A stretch of 64,000 nt of DNA, taken from Thiothrix sp. GTDB lineage: Bacteria > Pseudomonadota > Gammaproteobacteria > Poriferisulfidales > GCA-002705445. Shown piece after piece: positions 2,305 through 56,766 of the stretch; the first letter of the stretch is position 1; each line of letters starts with the position of its first letter. A program made the translations under genes and the position numbers. The DNA lies in assembly GCA_038141665.1 (NCBI GenBank), contig JAYQIN010000002.1, positions 765,189 through 829,188 of the forward strand, given 5' to 3'. The notes under the pieces are model-generated. The model was not told the origin of the DNA, made no database searches, and saw nothing but the letters and a program-made list of their open reading frames with translations.

Positions 2305-3189
2305 ATGATAATTAGCACATTCCAAAAATTATGCCTTTTATTACTAAGCCATTGTAGTTTGTCAATTGCGCACCGCTTAGCAAAAATATTGTCTATTTTT
2401 TTTTCAAGTAATAGCAAAAAATATCGCGTGGCGTACAAGAATTTAAAAATCTGCTTTCCAGATAAAGCAGAATATTGGCTTCAAAAAACAGCAAGAGAAA
2501 GTGTAAATGAATATTTAAAATCATTACTTGAATCTCCTTGTTTATATAGAATATCTAAAAAAAATATAAATTCCCTGATAAATAAAGTTAATAATGAGGA
2601 AGTTATCAAAGAATGTGTTAATAAAAATAAGGGCGTTATATTTATGACACCACACCATGGCTCATGGGAACTTAGTGGATTATTTGTTGCAAGCAAAATC
2701 AAAACATATACTATGTTTAAACCTTTGCGCAATAAAGTTTTAAATGATTTTGTTTTCAAAGGAAGGGAGTCGCAGGGCGCCTCCCTTGTAGAAACAGATA
2801 ACATAGGTGTAAAAAAATTATTAAAAGCTTTGAGAAATAATTTTGGGATAGGCATCTTGCCAGACCATACTCCGAAAATAAATCAAGGCGTGATGTCCAG
2901 CTTTTATGGTGTACCTGTAAATACTGCAACACTAATTCATAAGCTGGGAAAGAAGAACAAGGTTCCCATAATATATATATTTTCTGAGCGCTTGCCAAAA
3001 AGCGCTGGGTTCGATCTTCATCTTGGAGTAATTGAGGAAGAGTTCTATAGTCTTGATGAAAAATCATCTGCAGATTTTTTGAATAAAAAAATCGAATACT
3101 TAGTCAATAAAAATATTTCGCAGTACCTTTGGTCCTATGAAAGGTTCAGAAATAGATCTGGCGTAAAAGAAAATATATATAACACGTAA
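2305..3189 (+). CDS. lpxL: lipid A biosynthesis late acyltransferase (LpxL/LpxM/LpxP, HtrB family)
   Basis: 294 aa, HHGSWE (HX4E acyltransferase motif), overall HtrB/MsbB-like layout. The exact paralog cannot be assigned. Confidence 0.65.
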   Translation: MIISTFQKLCLLLLSHCSLSIAHRLAKILSIFFSSNSKKYRVAYKNLKICFPDKAEYWLQKTARESVNEYLKSLLESPCLYRISKKNINSLINKVNNEEVIKECVNKNKGVIFMTPHHGSWELSGLFVASKIKTYTMFKPLRNKVLNDFVFKGRESQGASLVETDNIGVKKLLKALRNNFGIGILPDHTPKINQGVMSSFYGVPVNTATLIHKLGKKNKVPIIYIFSERLPKSAGFDLHLGVIEEEFYSLDEKSSADFLNKKIEYLVNKNISQYLWSYERFRNRSGVKENIYNT

Positions 3190-3190
3190 A

Positions 3191-4636
3191 TTATTTCTTC
3201 CAAAAATCAGGTATGAAAATAACTAATAGTGTAAATATTTCCAGTCGACCAACAATCATACTAAAAGACAGCACCCATTTATTTATATCTGATATATTTG
3301 CATAGTTATATAAGACATCACCTTGTCCTGGTCCGAGATTATTTATAGTTGCTGCTACAGCTGAGAATGATGTTAAAAAATCTAATCCTGATGACATCAA
3401 TAAAAGTAAAACAGTCAAAAATACAATTACATATATTGCAAAAAATCCCCATATCGTTTCTAGAGTTCTTTCATTAATTACATTATTTCCAATTTTCACT
3501 TTAATTTTTGAATTTGGGTGGACTAATCTCACAAGCTCTCTATACCCTTGTTTTAGTAGAAGCATCACTCTAATCACTTTCATGCCACCAGCAGTTGAAC
3601 CTGCACAACCGCCTATAAAGCTAAAAAGTATTAGGAGTAGTGGAAGAAAACCTATGTAACTATAATAACTAGAATTTGTAAAACCTGTCGTTGTAGAAAT
3701 AGAAACAGCATAAAAAATATTTTTTATCATTTCTTCAATATTTTTTTCTGATGAGGAGCCAAATGTATAAAAGATAGTAAGAGATGATATTAAAAATATT
3801 AAAAATATGAAAAAATATGCTTCATTATCTTTTTTGTATGGCGTAATCGATTTACTTTTGAAAGCTAAGTAATGTAAGCTAAAATTTAAGCATGCTGCAA
3901 TCATAAATACTATTGCTACTAATTCTATCCAATGATTATTATAGTATCCAAAACTTTCGTTATGCGTTGAAAACCCTCCAATCGCTATAGTTGAAAAACT
4001 ATGACAAATAGAATCAAATAAATCCATTCCTGCAACATAATAACTTAAGCCACAAAGAAAAGTCATAATTAAATAAACTACCCACAACCATTTTGCAGTC
4101 TCAGTAATTCTAGGTGTTATTTTATTTTTTATTGGTCCTGCGACCTCTGCTTTATAAAGTTGCATTCCACCAACTCCTAGCATTGGTAAAACTGCTACTG
4201 CCAGTACAATAATTCCAAGGCCACCTAACCATTGCAGATACTGTCTATAGAATAATATTGATTTTGGCAGCTCATCAATATTACTAATTATAGTTGCTCC
4301 AGTAGTCGTTAAGCCTGAAACTGATTCAAATATTGCATTTGTTATAGATATATTAAGCGACTCACTTAATAGCATTGGTAGCGATGCAAACGTACTTAAT
4401 ACAAACCAGAATAAAACTACTATTATAAAACCATCACGTAATTTTAGATCAGTTTTGGCTTGCATTGCTGGCAGCCAGAGCAGAAGACCTGAAACAAAAA
4501 TTAAAATTAAAGCATAAAAAAATGACCAAGTTTCGCCATCATCGTAAATAATACTTACAATAATGGGAGGGATAATTGCCAGACTGAACAACATTAAGAG
4601 CAAGCCAAGTATTCTAATAACAGATTTTATTTGCAT
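3191..4636 (-). CDS. trkH: Trk-type K+ uptake membrane subunit TrkH
   Basis: 481 aa polytopic protein with repeated TTTGF/GLTTTG/GGFS pore-loop-like motifs; adjacent to trkA. Confidence 0.9.
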   Translation of the reverse strand: MQIKSVIRILGLLLMLFSLAIIPPIIVSIIYDDGETWSFFYALILIFVSGLLLWLPAMQAKTDLKLRDGFIIVVLFWFVLSTFASLPMLLSESLNISITNAIFESVSGLTTTGATIISNIDELPKSILFYRQYLQWLGGLGIIVLAVAVLPMLGVGGMQLYKAEVAGPIKNKITPRITETAKWLWVVYLIMTFLCGLSYYVAGMDLFDSICHSFSTIAIGGFSTHNESFGYYNNHWIELVAIVFMIAACLNFSLHYLAFKSKSITPYKKDNEAYFFIFLIFLISSLTIFYTFGSSSEKNIEEMIKNIFYAVSISTTTGFTNSSYYSYIGFLPLLLILFSFIGGCAGSTAGGMKVIRVMLLLKQGYRELVRLVHPNSKIKVKIGNNVINERTLETIWGFFAIYVIVFLTVLLLLMSSGLDFLTSFSAVAATINNLGPGQGDVLYNYANISDINKWVLSFSMIVGRLEIFTLLVIFIPDFWKK

Positions 4637-32826: not shown

Positions 32827-35800
32827 TTATGCAGCAACACTATCTTTATTGAATAAATCTTCAATTTTGATGGCTTTAGGTTTGACTAATAAAAATTTAT
32901 TTATATAGCTATCAAAATTATCAAGTATAAATCTGCCCCATTCGCTATTTGTAAGATTCACATAATCTTCTATAGATTTTCTTAGGAAGGTAACTTGATG
33001 AAGATTCTCTTCTTTATTAATTTTTAAAGTTTCCACAAGCTCTGTATTATATTTATCTTTAAAGGTGTTGTTTTCGTCTAAAACAATTGCAAAACCACCT
33101 GACATTCCTGCTCCAAAGTTAACACCTGTTTCTCCAAGAACTATGACAGCACCATTGGTCATATATTCACATCCATGATCTCCAACCCCCTCAACTATTG
33201 CTGTGGCTCCTGAATTTCTTACAGCAAATCTTTCTCCTGCAATTCCAGCAGCATAAAGTTTTCCACCAGTTGCACCATACATGCATGTATTACCTATGAT
33301 AACTGAGTTCTTTGTCTCATAAGTTACATCTTTTGGGGGATATACAACAATCTGTCCCGCAGCCATTCCTTTGCCGACGTAGTCATTAGCATCCCCTTCT
33401 AAAGTTAAATTCAAGCCACCAGCATTCCAAACTCCAAAACTTTGTCCCGCTGTACCTTTAAAATGGATATTTATTGGGTTCTTAGACATTCCATAATTTC
33501 CGTGAAGGCTAGCTATGTAGCCTGATATGCTAGCTCCAACTGATCTATCAGTATTTTTAATAGAATAATTAAAGTTTCCACCAGATTTACTTTGAATTGC
33601 ATCTTTAGTCTCTTCATTAATTTTCTTAGATAGTTCTGCTTTGTCCCAAGGAATATTGCTTTCTAATTCACATGTATGAGAGATATTTTCATCAACATTG
33701 GCATCTGAAATAATTGGATCAATGATTAAATTTTTTAATTTACCATTTTCAAATTTTTTAACTTCAAGAATGTTTGTTTTTCCAATAATATCTGACAACT
33801 TTTTATATCCTAGATTTGCTAATAAGATTCTAGTTTCTTCAGCTATAAATCTAAAATAATTCATCACCATTTCATCTTTACCAATAAAATGATATTTTCT
33901 TAAAACTTGATTTTGAGTCGCAACACCAGTGGCGCAATTATTCAAATGACAAATTCTTAAATATTTGCAGCCCATTGCGATCATTGGTCCTGTTCCGAAA
34001 CCAAAACTTTCAGCTCCTAAAATTGCTGCTTTAACAACATCAATACCAGTTTTTAATCCACCATCTGCTTGTAATCTTACATTTCTTCTTAAGTTATTGG
34101 CTCTTAGTGTTTGGTGAGTTTCTGATAGACCCATTTCCCAAGGTCCGCCAGCATATTTAATACTGGACAGCGGACTCGCTGCAGTTCCTCCATCATAACC
34201 GGATATTGTAATAAAATCTGCATAAGCTTTTGCTACCCCAGCAGCTATAGTTCCAACCCCTGCTTCTGCAACTAATTTAACAGATACAAAAGCTTTTGGA
34301 TTGACCTGTTTTAGGTCAAAAATTAATTGCGCCAAATCTTCTATCGAATATATATCATGATGTGGAGGCGGTGAAATTAGTGTTATGCCAGGATTTGCAT
34401 ATCTTAAAGTAGCAATTAGCTTGTCAACTTTGTCACCGGGAAGCTGTCCTCCTTCACCTGGTTTTGCGCCTTGGGCAATTTTTATTTGAATAACTTCTGC
34501 ATTAACTAAGTAATGAGGAGTGACTCCAAATCTTCCTGATGCTACTTGTTTTATTTTTGAGTTTTTATCTGTGTTAAATCTTTTTTGATCTTCTCCACCC
34601 TCGCCTGAATTAGATCTTCCTCCCATTTTGTTCATAGCTTGAGCTAAAGTTTCGTGAGCATCAGGAGATAGAGCTCCTAAAGACATCCCGGCAGAGTCGA
34701 ATCTTAAAAGTATATTTTCTATTGGCTCGACATCATCTAGTGGAATTGGTTTTCTTGAGCTATTGAAGTCCAGCATGTCTCTAATCACCATTTTCTCTCT
34801 AGAGTGAACTATGTCGCTATATTTTTTATAATCTTCGTAGTCACCACTTTTTACAGCATCTTGAAGTGTTTTCACGACATCAGGATTATAGGCATGAAAC
34901 TCTTCACCATGAACGTATTTTAAAAGACCGCCTTGTTTAATATTCTTTCTTTCACTCCAAGTATTTTTGGCAAGTTTAATTTGATCAATTTGTAAATCAT
35001 TAAATGTTGTTCCTGATAATCTATTAGTAGTATCACAAAAACATAAATCAACTACTTCTTGATTTAATCCAACACATTCAAATAACTGTGATCCTCTATA
35101 ACTTGAAATAGTGGATATTCCCATCTTTGATAGAATTTTATAAAGGCCTTTGTTTATGCCCTGTCTATAATTTCTAGTTGCTTTGAAAAATTCTGAATTG
35201 TCATCAGATTTTTCAATAATCATACTATTTAAGGATTGATAGGCCAAATATGGATAAATTGCAGTTGCACCATATCCAATCAATGTGGCGCAATGATGAG
35301 AGTCTCGAGCTGTCGCTGTTTCTACAATAATGTTTACACTTGTTCTGAGACCACTTTTAATTAAAGCATGATGAACAGCGCCGGTAGCAAGGAGAGCATG
35401 AATTGGTAACTTTCCTTTTTTAATATTTTTATCACTTAAAATAATAAATACTTTATTATTTTTTGCGGCATCAATTGCTTTTTTTGTCAAATTTGTTATT
35501 GCTTTTTCAAGTTCTATTTTTTCATCAAAGTTTAGATCCAGAATTACAAATGTGAATTTCTTATTCTTTAGTTCCTGTAATTGTTTGAATTTTCTATATG
35601 ATAATATAGGAGATTCAATAGTCAGTCTGTGTGCATGTTTCGAGCCCTCCTCAAAGACGTTTAAATCTGGTCCGAGGTAAGTTTCTAAAGACATAACATT
35701 ACTTTCCCTTATTGGGTCTATAGGTGGATTTGTTACTTGAGCAAACTGTTGTCTGAAATAATCATATATTGACCTAATTTCATTTGATAAAACAGGAAAA

Positions 35801-37299
35801 GGAGTATCGTCACCCATAGAGCCAATAGCTTCCTGACTAAGATTTGAAAGTGGTTTCAATATTTGATCTTTCTCTTCATAAGTAACATTAAACATTTTTT
35901 CATATTGCTTAATTTTAGAATCATTAAAAAATTCTACTTCAGGGAATTTGTCGGGAATAATTTTTCGCATTGATTCTGCCCCAGTGTCCATCCATTCTTT
36001 GTAGGGGCATCTTTTTTTAAGAATATTGTCAATGTCATGTGAATATAAAATTTCTCCTTCTTCAGTATCTACAGCAATAATCTGACCAGGGCCAAGCTTT
36101 CCCTTTTCAATAATATCTCTTTCATCGTATTCATAGACTCCAATTTCAGAAGCTACAGTTATATGCCTATCATTAGTTATTACATACCTTGCAGGCCTTA
36201 AGCCGTTTCTATCAGTTACACAAGCTGCAAATCTCCCATCAGTTAAAACTATACCTGCTGGCCCATCCCATGACTCCATATGCTTTGCATTATATTCATA
36301 GAACGCTTTAAGATCTGAATCACTTTCAGGAATACTTTTCCATGCTGGCGGAATTAGAAGTTTAATAGCTTTAAATAAATTAATTCCTCCAACAACTAAA
36401 ACTTCAAGCATGTTATCGAGACTTTTTGAGTCTGACCCATTCATAGAAACAAGAGGTTTCAGATCAGCTAATTCTGGTATTTTAGAAGTTTTAAAAATGC
36501 TGGATCTTGCCTGAGACCAATTTCTATTGGCTCTTATAGTATTAATTTCTCCATTATGCGCTAACATTCTGAATGGCTGTGCAAGGCTCCATTGAGGCGT
36601 TGTATTTGTTGAAAATCTTTGATGAAAAACACATAGAGAAGTTTCAAGTTTTTTATTAGATAGGTCTAAATAAAATTTAGCAAGATGTTTTGGCATTATC
36701 ATGCCCTTATACAATATAACTTTAGAAGATAAACTTGTGATATAAAAAATATCATCATCTGTTTTAGAAATTAATATCTCTATTTTTCTTCTTATAATAA
36801 GTAATTTAGATTCAATATCTCTACTATTAATTTTCTCTGAGGGATTAATGAATGCTTGGCTAATATAAGGTAGAGTTTTTAATGCGTCCTCACCACAAAT
36901 CTTTTCATCGGTTGGAACATCTCTCCAGCCAGCTAAAATAAAATCATGTTCTTTTACCACTTCTTCAACAATTTTCATTGAAGATTTTCTTTTCTTTATA
37001 TCAGTATTTAGAAAAAACATTCCAATAGCAAAATTTTTTGCAACATTAATTTTTTGTTCATTTGCTATAGACCTGAAGAAGAATTCTGGAATTTTAAACA
37101 ATATTCCACAACCATCTCCAGAGGTTCCATCAGCTCCGACGGCGCCTCTATGAGCAAGCCTTTCGAGAGCAGTGATAGCTGTATCAATTAACCAGTGACT
37201 TGGTTTATCATCAATGTTTGAAATTAAACCAAATCCACAGCTGTCTTTTTCAAAGCTTTTATCATATAGACCAGTAATTTCTTTAGTTTTATCTACCAT
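32827..37299 (-). CDS. gltB: glutamate synthase (NADPH) large subunit
   Basis: 1490 aa, N-terminal Ntn Cys (DSCGFG), FMN and 3Fe-4S domains, C-terminal GXGXG beta-helix domain. Confidence 0.95.
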   Translation of the reverse strand: MVDKTKEITGLYDKSFEKDSCGFGLISNIDDKPSHWLIDTAITALERLAHRGAVGADGTSGDGCGILFKIPEFFFRSIANEQKINVAKNFAIGMFFLNTDIKKRKSSMKIVEEVVKEHDFILAGWRDVPTDEKICGEDALKTLPYISQAFINPSEKINSRDIESKLLIIRRKIEILISKTDDDIFYITSLSSKVILYKGMIMPKHLAKFYLDLSNKKLETSLCVFHQRFSTNTTPQWSLAQPFRMLAHNGEINTIRANRNWSQARSSIFKTSKIPELADLKPLVSMNGSDSKSLDNMLEVLVVGGINLFKAIKLLIPPAWKSIPESDSDLKAFYEYNAKHMESWDGPAGIVLTDGRFAACVTDRNGLRPARYVITNDRHITVASEIGVYEYDERDIIEKGKLGPGQIIAVDTEEGEILYSHDIDNILKKRCPYKEWMDTGAESMRKIIPDKFPEVEFFNDSKIKQYEKMFNVTYEEKDQILKPLSNLSQEAIGSMGDDTPFPVLSNEIRSIYDYFRQQFAQVTNPPIDPIRESNVMSLETYLGPDLNVFEEGSKHAHRLTIESPILSYRKFKQLQELKNKKFTFVILDLNFDEKIELEKAITNLTKKAIDAAKNNKVFIILSDKNIKKGKLPIHALLATGAVHHALIKSGLRTSVNIIVETATARDSHHCATLIGYGATAIYPYLAYQSLNSMIIEKSDDNSEFFKATRNYRQGINKGLYKILSKMGISTISSYRGSQLFECVGLNQEVVDLCFCDTTNRLSGTTFNDLQIDQIKLAKNTWSERKNIKQGGLLKYVHGEEFHAYNPDVVKTLQDAVKSGDYEDYKKYSDIVHSREKMVIRDMLDFNSSRKPIPLDDVEPIENILLRFDSAGMSLGALSPDAHETLAQAMNKMGGRSNSGEGGEDQKRFNTDKNSKIKQVASGRFGVTPHYLVNAEVIQIKIAQGAKPGEGGQLPGDKVDKLIATLRYANPGITLISPPPHHDIYSIEDLAQLIFDLKQVNPKAFVSVKLVAEAGVGTIAAGVAKAYADFITISGYDGGTAASPLSSIKYAGGPWEMGLSETHQTLRANNLRRNVRLQADGGLKTGIDVVKAAILGAESFGFGTGPMIAMGCKYLRICHLNNCATGVATQNQVLRKYHFIGKDEMVMNYFRFIAEETRILLANLGYKKLSDIIGKTNILEVKKFENGKLKNLIIDPIISDANVDENISHTCELESNIPWDKAELSKKINEETKDAIQSKSGGNFNYSIKNTDRSVGASISGYIASLHGNYGMSKNPINIHFKGTAGQSFGVWNAGGLNLTLEGDANDYVGKGMAAGQIVVYPPKDVTYETKNSVIIGNTCMYGATGGKLYAAGIAGERFAVRNSGATAIVEGVGDHGCEYMTNGAVIVLGETGVNFGAGMSGGFAIVLDENNTFKDKYNTELVETLKINKEENLHQVTFLRKSIEDYVNLTNSEWGRFILDNFDSYINKFLLVKPKAIKIEDLFNKDSVAA

Positions 37300-43801: not shown

Positions 43802-45214
<1,413 letters not shown>

Positions 45215-54950: not shown

Positions 54951-55763
54951 ATGGATGCTAATTCATTTAAATCTGAAGATTATATAATACAAGAAGAACC
55001 TTACTATCACGCAGTTAGAGACGAAATAGAGGTATTCGAAAGCGCTTACAAGAACCAGTTACCGATATTATTAAAAGGCCCTACAGGCTGCGGAAAAACA
55101 AGATTTATGGAGTACATGAGTTGGCGACTCAAAAGACCTTTGATAACAGTATCGTGTCATGATGATTTGACTGCTTCAGATTTAGTTGGGAGATATTTAA
55201 TTTCAGGTAGTGACACAGTTTGGATAGATGGCCCGTTAGCTAGAGCAGTTAGAGCTGGAGCAATATGCTACCTTGACGAAATAGTCGAAGCTAGAAAGGA
55301 TACAACCGTCGTTATCCACCCACTCTGCGATGATAGGCGCGTTCTCCCTATTGAAAAAGTAGGTGAAGTTCTAGAAGCAACCCCAGAATTTTGTATGGCA
55401 ATTTCATATAATCCTGGATATCAAAGTATTCTCAAAGATTTAAAACAAAGTACGAGACAAAGATTTGTAGCTTTAGAATTTGATTATCCTGAGGCTAAAA
55501 TAGAACAATCAATAATCGAGAGCGAAACAGGAATTGATGCTGAGTTAAGTGCGTCGCTAGTCAAATTTGCACACATGACCAGGAATTTAAAAGGAAATGG
55601 TTTGGATGAAGGTGCAAGCACTAGATTATTGGTCCATGCTGCTAAGCTAATTGTTTCTGGCGTAAATCCTAATACTGCTTGTAGATGTTCAATTTCAGAA
55701 GCTATAACAGATGATTTAGAAATGCTTAAAGCTGTGAATGAATTAAGCTCCTCTCTTTTTTAA
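54951..55763 (+). CDS. CbbQ/NirQ/NorQ/GpvN-family MoxR-like AAA+ ATPase
   Basis: 270 aa, Walker A GPTGCGKT, Walker [10 protein letters not shown], length and conserved blocks typical of CbbQ/NorQ. Confidence 0.85.
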
Positions 55764-55845
55764 AAAAAATCGAGATGCTATTTGATTAAGGAGCGAACAA
55801 AATCCCAATAACATCTCAATATAACCTTAACCAAAATATTAAAGT

Positions 55846-56020
55846 TTAAACTCTCAAGTAAGACAAACCTCTATAATTCAATTGAGCACTTAATTTTGTA
55901 GCGCGTTGAGCATTATCTTGCTTATGGGAAATGCCTCTATAAGTAAGGTTTGAATTATTTAGTTTTTTTCGACTTTGTTTGAGCAGCGTATTTTACGCCT
56001 CTATATATTTGATTTTGCAT
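55846..56020 (-). CDS. unannotated small ORF with three YRG motifs (DUF4278-like), split by one extra A in an A7 run
   Basis: Minus-strand ATG at 56020 gives MQNQIYRGVKYAAQTKSKK, then run A7 (55963-55969). The +1 frame continues LNNSNLTYRGISHKQDNAQRATKLSAQLNYRGLSYLRV to TAA at 55846-55848. Removing one A gives a 57-aa protein. Confidence 0.5.
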
Positions 56021-56211
56021 AACCATCTCACTTGTAAATTAAATCAACTTATATAGTGAACTTGTTACGCAGGTTCTTGCGTGGTATAACCAAATTTAAA
56101 TATATCATTTTTTTGTAAATACTCAAGCATTTATGCTGTAGAAATAGGTTTAAAACATGGCTATATTGTGCATGATTAAATTAAAACCTTATTCGAGAAT
56201 AGGAGTTTAGC

Positions 56212-56766
56212 TTGGCCACAACGTTTGAATTAAAAGGAAGTTTTAATGATAGTTTTTGCAAATTAATATCAGAAAAATATTACTTTAAAAATTATAATTG
56301 CTTAGAAATTAGAGAAGATCTAGAAAACACTTTTAGAGATTTTATAATCTTAATTCTTAGTGAAAACAATAGTTATACTATTGAAGAAAGAAATAAATTG
56401 TATAACGAGGCTATTTTTAATCTCCAGCAAACAAGTAAGCTACTTAAAGGTATGCCACACCCTGCAAGTTCAATGAGCTATAAACTATTAAAAATGTCAG
56501 AAACTCTAAAGAAAGTAACGTTCGGCAGTAAAAAAGAAAAATCTAAAGCAAATAGATTTATAGAGAAAAATCTTATTAGAAAATTCATAGTTTTTTGGAA
56601 TAAACATAGCGATACAAAATTTTTAACTCAAGAAAATGAAATAAATTATAAAGTATGTGAATGTTTTATTGATTGCTCAAAAGAATTATATAAAAAATTT
56701 CCAGACATTGAATGGTTTAAAGATTGTGAAACTGAATTCGTAGAAAGTTTATTTGAAAATATTTAA
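56212..56766 (+). CDS. hypothetical protein (orphan, very AT-rich)
   Basis: 184 aa ORF, TTG start preceded by GGAG at suitable spacing; no family recognised. Confidence 0.4.
   Translation: MATTFELKGSFNDSFCKLISEKYYFKNYNCLEIREDLENTFRDFIILILSENNSYTIEERNKLYNEAIFNLQQTSKLLKGMPHPASSMSYKLLKMSETLKKVTFGSKKEKSKANRFIEKNLIRKFIVFWNKHSDTKFLTQENEINYKVCECFIDCSKELYKKFPDIEWFKDCETEFVESLFENI

Follow-up and report, generated by a model that had tools for sequence, protein, structure and literature searches.

Small DUF4278 Genes and Their Described Regulation

In cyanobacteria, genes for DUF4278 proteins are the main genes located downstream of the glutamine-I (glnA motif) and glutamine-II (Downstream-peptide) riboswitches (PMC6212724; PMC2864571), and they have been linked to nitrogen status (PMC6212724). 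These riboswitches have been reported exclusively in cyanobacterial genomes, and environmental aptamers found beside nitrogen genes were left unassigned (PMC6212724). The present work deals with a DUF4278 gene on the minus strand (55846-56020) of a 64,000-nucleotide stretch of contig JAYQIN010000002.1 (assembly GCA_038141665.1, Thiothrix sp.), hereafter the window, which belongs to a sulfur-oxidising marine gammaproteobacterium. The gene adds a new and so far unstudied member, from a phylum in which it was not expected, to a known family, and the gap that contains it (55764-56211) is very likely a complete and independently transcribed small-gene unit, read from the minus strand and equipped with its own regulatory parts.

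Several described systems can be compared with this locus. The small DUF4278 proteins of marine picocyanobacteria (the "Downstream-peptide" or Yfr6 open reading frame (ORF), e.g., PMM1846) share with the window peptide the PF14105 family, a length of around 57-60 amino acids (aa), a basic character and (L)(T)YRGxxY repeats, the second motif of the window peptide being exactly LTYRG. Moreover, each kind of gene forms a monocistronic unit of its own, and its 5' untranslated region (UTR) is structured and acts on translation, a feature predicted in the case of the window gene. The cyanobacterial genes are preceded by an aptamer of the glutamine-II (RF01704) or glutamine-I type, the window gene by an unrelated, invariant leader that matches no Rfam family, and the window gene is present as one copy at one fixed locus, in contrast to up to nine copies per cyanobacterial genome (PMC6212724). 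In Synechocystis, the glutamine synthetase inactivating factor IF17 (gifB) contains DUF4278 as its N-terminal moiety and is, like the window peptide, arginine-rich, basic and linked to nitrogen status. However, IF17 inhibits glutamine synthetase via its C-terminal IF7-like part and its DUF4278 part affects only stability (PMC6316151), whereas the window peptide consists of DUF4278 alone.

The T-loop of the signalling protein PII (GlnB/GlnK) contains the sequence YRGxxY with the uridylylated tyrosine, and the same spacing is found in two of the three window motifs (YRGVKY and YRGLSY), with Y54 nearly invariant, although the window peptide shows neither a PII fold nor homology beyond the hexapeptide. 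A decoy role has been suggested for cyanobacterial YRGxxY peptides as copies of the PII T-loop, of which the second tyrosine is the uridylylation site in Proteobacteria (PMC2864571, Additional file 1). Since the T-loop tyrosine is uridylylated there, the decoy idea would be at least as natural in Proteobacteria as in cyanobacteria. Neither a PII (glnB) gene nor glnD was found in the window, and glnA does not lie in it either.

Searches of the literature returned no paper on glutamine riboswitches or DUF4278 in SUP05/Thioglobus-type bacteria. The window places both supposed cyanobacterial specialities in a marine gammaproteobacterium, namely, glutamine aptamers on two glutamate synthase (GOGAT) genes and a DUF4278 gene whose leader is of another kind.

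A Split DUF4278 Gene in the Gap after cbbQ

The components of the unit, all on the minus strand, are the following:

55846..56020, minus strand: DUF4278 (YRG-repeat) small-protein coding sequence (CDS), 57 codons and a stop after removal of one A; PF14105 match of 37 bits
56020..55955, minus strand: N-terminal ORF as sequenced, 21 aa; the 38 C-terminal codons are start-less
55963..55969, minus strand: A7 homopolymer with a one-base insertion; A6, or a non-homopolymer such as AACAGAC, in relatives
56099..56126, minus strand: sigma-70-like promoter, from a consensus scan and conservation across 35 unique loci
56054..56092, minus strand: invariant 5'-UTR core, identical in all loci found via protein similarity or synteny
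56016..56032, minus strand: translation-initiation region with Shine–Dalgarno (SD)-like purines and the start codon; pairs with the leader core
55762..55820, minus strand: intrinsic-terminator-type hairpin and U run, RNAfold -23.5 kcal/mol; abuts the cbbQ stop codon

A preliminary description of the window had reported in this seemingly empty gap a hidden 57-codon ORF with three YRG motifs, and the sequence is exactly as it had described. From the ATG at 56020, a 19-codon N-terminal part (MQNQIYRGVKYAAQTKSKK) runs into the sequence G-A7-C, whose A7 run occupies 55963-55969. Beyond this run, frame 0 reads only TK before a TAA stop (55957-55955), and the next frame encodes a 38-codon C-terminal part (LNNSNLTYRGISHKQDNAQRATKLSAQLNYRGLSYLRV) that ends with TAA at 55848-55846. 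As sequenced, the product is limited to MQNQIYRGVKYAAQTKSKKTK. The ORF list of the window holds at this place only a 23-aa fragment (55955..56026), which begins at a second in-frame ATG at 56026 (MVMQNQ...), whereas the ATG kept by all relatives is that at 56020; the C-terminal part, without a start codon of its own, is not listed. The gap after cbbQ thus appeared empty because a single-base difference in a homopolymer makes the gene invisible.

The cluster of YRG motifs is not explained by chance. Among the 11 YRG tripeptides encoded in the six frames of the window, three fall within 139 nucleotides (nt) at this locus, forming the sole such cluster, and three or more within 180 nt occurred in 0 of 300 Markov-1 simulated windows, which bears out the earlier judgement that the repeats are very unlikely by chance. 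The repaired 57-aa peptide matches the Pfam family DUF4278 (PF14105) with 37.0 bits (E=4.3e-9; cut-off 25.3), its residues 5-54 aligning with positions 4-57 of the 57 in the profile, and the family membership proposed from the motifs is therefore upheld by the profile search. The C-terminal 38 aa alone reach 25.9 bits, and the 23-aa N-terminal fragment has no match in Pfam. Membership of PF14105 is indicated by the score and by the repeated YRG motif in a small protein, although this genome does not hold the ORF in intact form. A search of NCBIfam gave no match, and a search of PDB sequences with the family profile gave none at E<=10.

Conservation and Properties of the Peptide

The three YRG motifs, which read YRGVKY, YRGISH and YRGLSY in the window peptide, are spaced by 21-22 residues, and their YRG is invariant in 15 diverse orthologues and in a 42-sequence alignment that includes outgroups. 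A search of public proteins yielded seven intact homologues of 52-59 aa with 62-91% identity, a scan of species-representative genomes yielded six further gammaproteobacterial loci from metagenome-assembled or single-amplified genomes (34-68% identity), and a metagenome scan with a degenerate pattern of the leader added 31 further loci. The same synteny (aprBA, cbbQ, DUF4278) was found in every locus with sufficient flank, where identity to the window amounts to 90-98% for CbbQ, mostly ~93-98% for AprA and 65-80% for the product of orf184, the 184-aa ORF on the other side of the DUF4278 gene. In 53 of 53 related loci scanned, the reading frame is uninterrupted (57, 58, 59 or 61 codons), as would be expected of the ORF postulated in the preliminary description. 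A chance ORF was rejected on the basis of this conservation and of the motif cluster.

Invariance or near-invariance across the clade is confined to M1, the three YRG motifs and Y54; at their sixth residue, motifs 1 and 2 carry Y, H or F. The ratio of nonsynonymous to synonymous substitution rates is ~0.35-0.5 between two 57-codon subclades, a pattern that points to a peptide that is translated yet fast-evolving. The peptides are hydrophilic, rich in Arg and Lys and strongly basic (isoelectric point 9.8-11.0, that is, about 10-11). An AlphaFold2 model computed from 42 sequences contains no confident tertiary fold (mean predicted local distance difference test 62; predicted template-modelling score 0.20), although it shows, with low confidence, predicted beta-hairpins whose turns contain the two C-terminal YRG motifs. 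Judging from this model, the peptide is probably disordered or folds only upon binding to a partner. By analogy with its family context only, the protein is probably a small regulator linked to nitrogen status that binds its partner electrostatically, and it may act as a decoy of the PII T-loop by means of its YRGxxY motifs or bind glutamine synthetase in the manner of IF17. In public records that give a name, the orthologues are called "hypothetical protein".

The Extra A in This Sequence

The repair of the reading frame requires the removal of one A from the run at 55963-55969, as had been proposed, and comparison with relatives confirms this position. The two closest relatives first found carry G-A6-C where the window has G-A7-C, and more distant ones carry AACAGAC or unrelated codons. 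Ten contigs whose CbbQ is identical to that of the window (94.6-99.1% nucleotide identity over 2.5-3.8 kb) all contain an intact 57-codon gene, with A6 in nine of them and, in the tenth (L023), an in-frame A7 that results from a synonymous TCG to TCA change, so that the extra A is the sole indel separating the window from all ten. Furthermore, a protein identical to the repaired peptide is found in public data (P0056); it is encoded on at least 24 contigs, one of which is an 801-kb contig of GCA_038143975.1. Ten loci fetched through this protein are ~99.0% identical to the window with A6 in all cases, several of these loci overlapping contigs sampled in other look-ups. When the near-identical contigs (94.6-99.1%) are combined, 20 of 20 are in frame, 19 of them with A6 and one with the in-frame A7.

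Without the extra A, the CDS of the window is nucleotide-identical to 17 fetched loci. Since there is no decay after the break, the insertion must be either very recent or an artefact, and a homopolymer error in the assembly and a very recent loss-of-function mutation in this strain are about equally likely. A further run of A/T at 55762-55769, between the cbbQ stop and the terminator stem, has a length of 7, 8 or 9 in near-identical strains (L016-L023), and homopolymer length is naturally polymorphic at this locus. A programmed frameshift was considered and rejected, as neither the homopolymer nor the two-frame arrangement is conserved in orthologues.

Promoter and Invariant Leader

A consensus scan places a promoter at 56126-56099 of the minus strand, composed of TTGAGT, a 16-nt spacer and an extended -10 element (TG-n-TATATT). 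Across the 35 unique loci, TTGA and TGnTATATT are kept and the spacer varies. Transcription would start near 56095-56090, which corresponds to a 5' UTR of roughly 70-75 nt, and would end at the U run (55769-55762), giving a predicted transcript of ~330-350 nt. The UTR contains a core at 56092-56054 (minus strand) with the structure UGGUUAUACC-ACGCA-AGAACC-UGCGU-AACAA-GUUC-ACUA, the whole element of ~40 nt being UGGUUAUACCACGCAAGAACCUGCGUAACAAGUUCACUA. All loci recovered through protein similarity or synteny have the identical core, even where their peptides are only 34-46% identical, and it stays constant while the identity of the peptide falls to ~30% and that of orf184 to 65-80%. The same block was seen throughout the collected loci (L001-L075) with one C/A position. 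Among the 11 positions left free in the degenerate pattern of the metagenome scan, 10 never varied and 56072 (after AGAAC) was either C or A, this variable base being unpaired in every model. The core is followed by a variable AT-rich linker of ~20-29 nt, then by (U)AGUG and purines, and finally by GUUAUGCA with the start codon.

The leader can adopt two alternative arrangements. In the first, ACGCA (56082-56078) forms a 5' hairpin with UGCGU (56071-56067), and the GAAC of its loop (56076-56073) can pair with GUUC (56061-56058), a geometry of an H-type pseudoknot with AACAA as linker. In the second, the initiation region (56032-56016; AGUGAG-AUG-GUUAUGCA) pairs with UUCACU (56060-56055) and UGCGUAAC (56071-56064). 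Of five leaders folded, four have this sequestering fold, made up of UGCGUAAC:GUUAUGCA and UUCACU(A):(U)AGUGAG, as their minimum free energy or centroid structure, and the RNAalifold consensus carries the same pairing of the initiation region. The fold buries the SD-like purines and the AUG, reaching -19.6 kcal/mol in the window versus -6.6 for the upstream hairpins including ACGCA:UGCGU, with a probability of anti-AUG pairing of 0.87-0.99 (0.99 in the window). Because both use UGCGU, the 5' hairpin and the sequestering helix are mutually exclusive. Two kinds of sequence change preserve the helix: L053/L055 contain CACC:GGUG in place of CACU:AGUG, a compensatory exchange that is the only such pair and was seen by eye, and A to G changes in codon 2 convert a U-A pair into U-G.

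Translational control is the most likely mode of action of such a leader. By default, expression would be OFF through the pairing of UGCGUAAC..GUUCACU with the SD region and the AUG. The ACGCA:UGCGU hairpin, possibly locked by the GAAC:GUUC pseudoknot, would take up these nucleotides itself and thereby expose the ribosome-binding site. The switch to ON could accordingly come about by stabilisation of the 5' hairpin or pseudoknot, or by any other capture of the strand that pairs with the initiation region, with a metabolite, a protein or a small RNA (sRNA) as candidate stabilisers of the ON fold. The use of a long-range helix over SD and AUG, competing with an upstream hairpin or pseudoknot for the same strand, is common to this leader and to rpoS-type leaders and translational riboswitches of the H-type pseudoknot kind, such as SAM-II and preQ1-II, although there is no sequence relationship among them and the invariance of the window leader is far above what is usual. 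Part of the invariance can be explained without a ligand, because nearly every base of the core would serve two pairings, one of which is fixed by the AUG and SD. A more specific constraint is suggested by the bases that are just as invariant although unpaired (AUACC, and the A and C on either side of GAAC). A core segment (ACGCAAGAACCU, 56072-56083, minus strand) presumably resembles the universally conserved 16S rRNA region at ~968-980 (AACGCGAAGAACCUUAC), possibly by coincidence or mimicry; the window itself contains no rRNA gene.

Several points weigh against the reading of the gap as a complete unit under leader-mediated control. The transcription start and the transcript ends were placed from the sequence alone, and all examples belong to one clade and one locus. 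Moreover, the invariance of the core in L026-L056 is partly imposed by the pattern used to search for them, the unbiased set being the loci found by protein similarity or synteny. RNAalifold detected no changes on both sides of a pair, the leader being too invariant for covariation, and the alternative folds are derived from thermodynamics and complementarity because there is almost no covariation. The computed advantage of the OFF fold, ~13 kcal/mol, would call for a strong effector or for kinetic control. As to the origin of the extra A, no other split gene is visible among the 67 large ORFs of the window despite 163 A/T runs of at least 7, which argues mildly against a generally error-prone assembly and leaves room for a single error.

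Glutamine Riboswitches and the Regulon Question

In an Rfam scan at the gathering threshold, the window contains two matches to RF01739 (glutamine-I), both on the minus strand and both far above the cut-off of 35 bits. One (45318-45267, 62.6 bits) lies directly upstream of a gltD-like gene (45193..43802, 463 aa) and the other (37422-37372, 60.6 bits) directly upstream of gltB (37299..32827, 1490 aa), in agreement with the leaders recognised on these genes in the preliminary description, which had also stated correctly that glutamine riboswitches in cyanobacteria usually precede DUF4278 genes (PMC6212724). At the DUF4278 leader, on the other hand, neither glutamine-I (RF01739) nor glutamine-II (RF01704) was found at E<=10 in 55700-56300 and 56010-56130. 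The whole of Rfam (4227 families) at the same threshold gave, for 55700-56300 and the leader, only RUF2, Yfr19, DdR1, CyaR and a plastid 3'UTR (11-18 bits), and the best match of the leader alone (56010-56130) had 13 bits and an E of about 4.5, i.e., noise. Four loci of the gammaproteobacterial clade (L010, L013, L027 and L035) likewise have no Rfam family at the gathering threshold. As a control, an outgroup contig that looks cyanobacterial by its neighbouring genes (L057) contains at 2904-3877 three tandem DUF4278 genes of 57-58 aa, of which the first two are preceded by RF01739 (50.7 and 48.7 bits).

The leader resembles the glutamine-I and -II riboswitches in its location in the 5' UTR of a DUF4278 gene, its size (~40-60 nt) and a GAAC/GUUC helix that possibly closes a pseudoknot, and like them it would plausibly switch translation ON by freeing the ribosome-binding site. 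However, the leader matches no covariance model of these riboswitches, the partner of its helix lies 3' of the hairpin and not 5', and it is devoid of their C1:G pair, CGC triplex strand, E-loop and second hairpin. Inspection against the type II pseudoknot helix (CGUUC:GAACG) showed a GUUC:GAAC pairing of only 4 bp, flanked by an A/C mismatch and with inverted strand order (PMC6698751). A circularly permuted glutamine aptamer was likewise rejected by inspection, given that only GAAC/GUUC is shared: a closing C:G pair and a CGC strand are missing, and P2/P3 would find no space. Judging from its sequence, the DUF4278 leader belongs to neither class of glutamine riboswitch. Regarding the "cyanobacteria-style glutamine regulon" put forward in the preliminary description, riboswitch-led gltB and gltD do coexist with a DUF4278 gene in this genome, but the DUF4278 leader carries no known glutamine aptamer; shared control of the riboswitch-led GOGAT genes and the DUF4278 gene is a hypothesis.

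Alternative Explanations

Four other explanations concern the product, its frame and its leader. The peptide could be a cyanobacteria-style inactivating factor of glutamine synthetase (IF17/IF7-like) that forms a riboswitch regulon with gltB and gltD, as the two RF01739 aptamers ahead of these genes, its Arg/Lys-rich composition, which is that of inactivating factors, and its DUF4278 domain, present in IF17 and the main glutamine-riboswitch cargo in cyanobacteria (PMC6212724), would suggest. Nevertheless, the scan that recovered RF01739 in the control contig found no such aptamer in the leader at E<=10, and the part of IF17 that is equivalent to DUF4278, the N-terminal one, is not needed for the inactivation of glutamine synthetase (PMC6316151). 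The DUF4278 profile spans nearly the whole length of the peptide and leaves no extra C-terminal IF7-like region, so that an IF7-like arginine region is not found, as judged from profile coverage and not from a direct alignment with IF7/IF17; no solved structure matches the family by sequence, and inactivating factors inhibit selectively even within the glutamine synthetases of cyanobacteria (PMC6316151). This explanation is unlikely, and the link to glutamine synthetase inactivation drawn in the preliminary description turns out to be weak, as it concerns the dispensable moiety of IF17. Far less probable still is that the A7 run acts as a functional slippery site, through transcriptional slippage, +1 ribosomal frameshifting or phase variation, and that the full-length peptide is made or switched in this way. 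The Lys-tRNA on AAA could indeed re-pair +1 on A AAA AAA C, and homopolymer length varies from strain to strain both here and in the nearby terminator tail. However, 19 of the 20 near-identical contigs are in frame with A6 and the remaining one with A7 by a synonymous change, the site is replaced by AACAGAC or unrelated codons in distant orthologues, and seven As are below the length of efficient slippage in bacteria.

With regard to the leader, a small upstream ORF (M(I/V/L)YLNLVIPRKNLRNKFT..., from an ATG at 56108 to a TAA ending at 56049) might regulate the main ORF by its own translation, since every locus has an ATG, or in two cases a GTG, ahead of the core, the frame is open through the core, and gene callers fused this ORF to the main one in P0012, P0016 and P0034. 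This proposal is very improbable. The upstream ORF shows zero synonymous substitutions over 13 codons clade-wide, its stop position and its frame relative to the main ORF differ between loci, no SD precedes its ATG, and this ATG includes the TG of the extended -10 element, which is correctly spaced from the conserved TTGA, so that it would not be transcribed. The core at 56092-56054 could alternatively be the aptamer of a new riboswitch class, in which a ligand (glutamine or another nitrogen metabolite?) would free SD and AUG as an ON switch. The extreme conservation of ~40 nt, loop and bulge bases included, while peptide and flanks diverge is consistent with such an aptamer, and so are the compact H-type pseudoknot potential (5-bp stem, 4-bp loop-to-3' helix and A-rich linker) beside a mutually exclusive sequestering helix, the riboswitch control of homologous DUF4278 genes elsewhere (L057; PMC6212724) and the lack of a match among the 4227 Rfam families. 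Against it stand the lack of covariation in the leader and, by eye, of the C:G pair, CGC linker and second hairpin of the type I and II glutamine pockets, with which the core shares only the GAAC/GUUC helix (sequences of PMC6698751). Moreover, a classical aptamer already serves gltB and gltD in the same genome, the need for a second class not being obvious, and the invariance may stem from the dual pairing of each base or from a protein or sRNA partner. On balance, a new aptamer is a speculative proposal with a low probability. It is with equal reserve that UGGUUAUACCACGCAAGAACCUGCGUAACAAGUUCACUA could be regarded as an undescribed riboswitch class for the DUF4278 proteins of abundant marine sulfur-oxidising gammaproteobacteria, and maybe as a third, structurally distinct sensor of glutamine or nitrogen status. 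If this were true, it would imply, together with the classical glutamine-I aptamers on gltB and gltD, that RNA-based glutamine signalling with a YRG-peptide effector is not the purely cyanobacterial trait for which it has been taken but operates in Proteobacteria as well.

A leader that is letter-perfect beside an ORF at ~30% identity, and that can mask its SD and AUG, makes a candidate RNA that is short and simple to synthesise. If it binds a metabolite, the function of DUF4278 peptides would become testable in a second phylum, in which the PII/GlnD machinery typically operates. The invariant initiation-sequestering leader and the conserved loop of the terminator are the features most worth an experiment.

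As an observation on annotation, the leader (56049-56126, minus strand) is open in one frame (…LNLVIPRKNLRNKFT…), and in-frame linkers gave rise to 90-101-aa fusions of leader and DUF4278 (P0012, P0016 and P0034). These fusion "proteins" are likely mis-annotations, by which some gene callers wrongly join the leader to the DUF4278 ORF.

The Terminator

The unit ends in a hairpin with a 14-bp stem and a U8 run (55820-55762, minus strand), with an RNAfold energy of -23.5 kcal/mol (z=-4.45; 0 of 200 shuffles as stable). A stable, GC-containing hairpin directly before a U run, as is typical of intrinsic terminators, is thus present; a simple terminator scan missed it, its loop limit being 8 nt. All 32 unique loci carry the motif GUUCGCUCCUU in the loop (55798-55788, minus strand; also written GUUCGCUCC(UU)). 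Similar to this motif are the leader segment AAGUUCACU and presumably also the anti-SD tail of 16S rRNA (CCUCCUUA). The loop could be the seed of a 3'-UTR-derived sRNA or a cis partner, and its conserved anti-SD-like sequence could give the transcript a dual function as mRNA and sRNA. The plus strand of the loop is AAGGAGCGAAC, an SD-like sequence with no ORF behind it.

Neighbouring Genes

The order of genes around the unit is the same in the window and in the contigs of the homologues. The genes aprB and aprA, a 116-aa ORF, a metallophosphatase gene and cbbQ are convergent on the DUF4278 gene, and orf184 is divergent from it, with genes for an FKBP-type isomerase and a chromate transporter lying beyond orf184. 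In the window, cbbQ (54951-55763, plus strand; AAA_5 and CbbQ_C) lies beside aprBA, with no RuBisCO gene among the neighbouring genes examined. The presence of aprBA and cbbQ, taken with the GC content given below, is one basis for the assignment of the clade, for which SUP05/Arctic96BD-19-like is a narrower, tentative label. The ORF orf184 (56212-56766, plus strand) has no Pfam or NCBIfam family, and an exact look-up of its product among public proteins found no match. Its homologues, with at least 64% identity, are found in the same clade only, apart from a single 38% match, and it always neighbours the DUF4278 gene. The GC content of the window is 31.6%.

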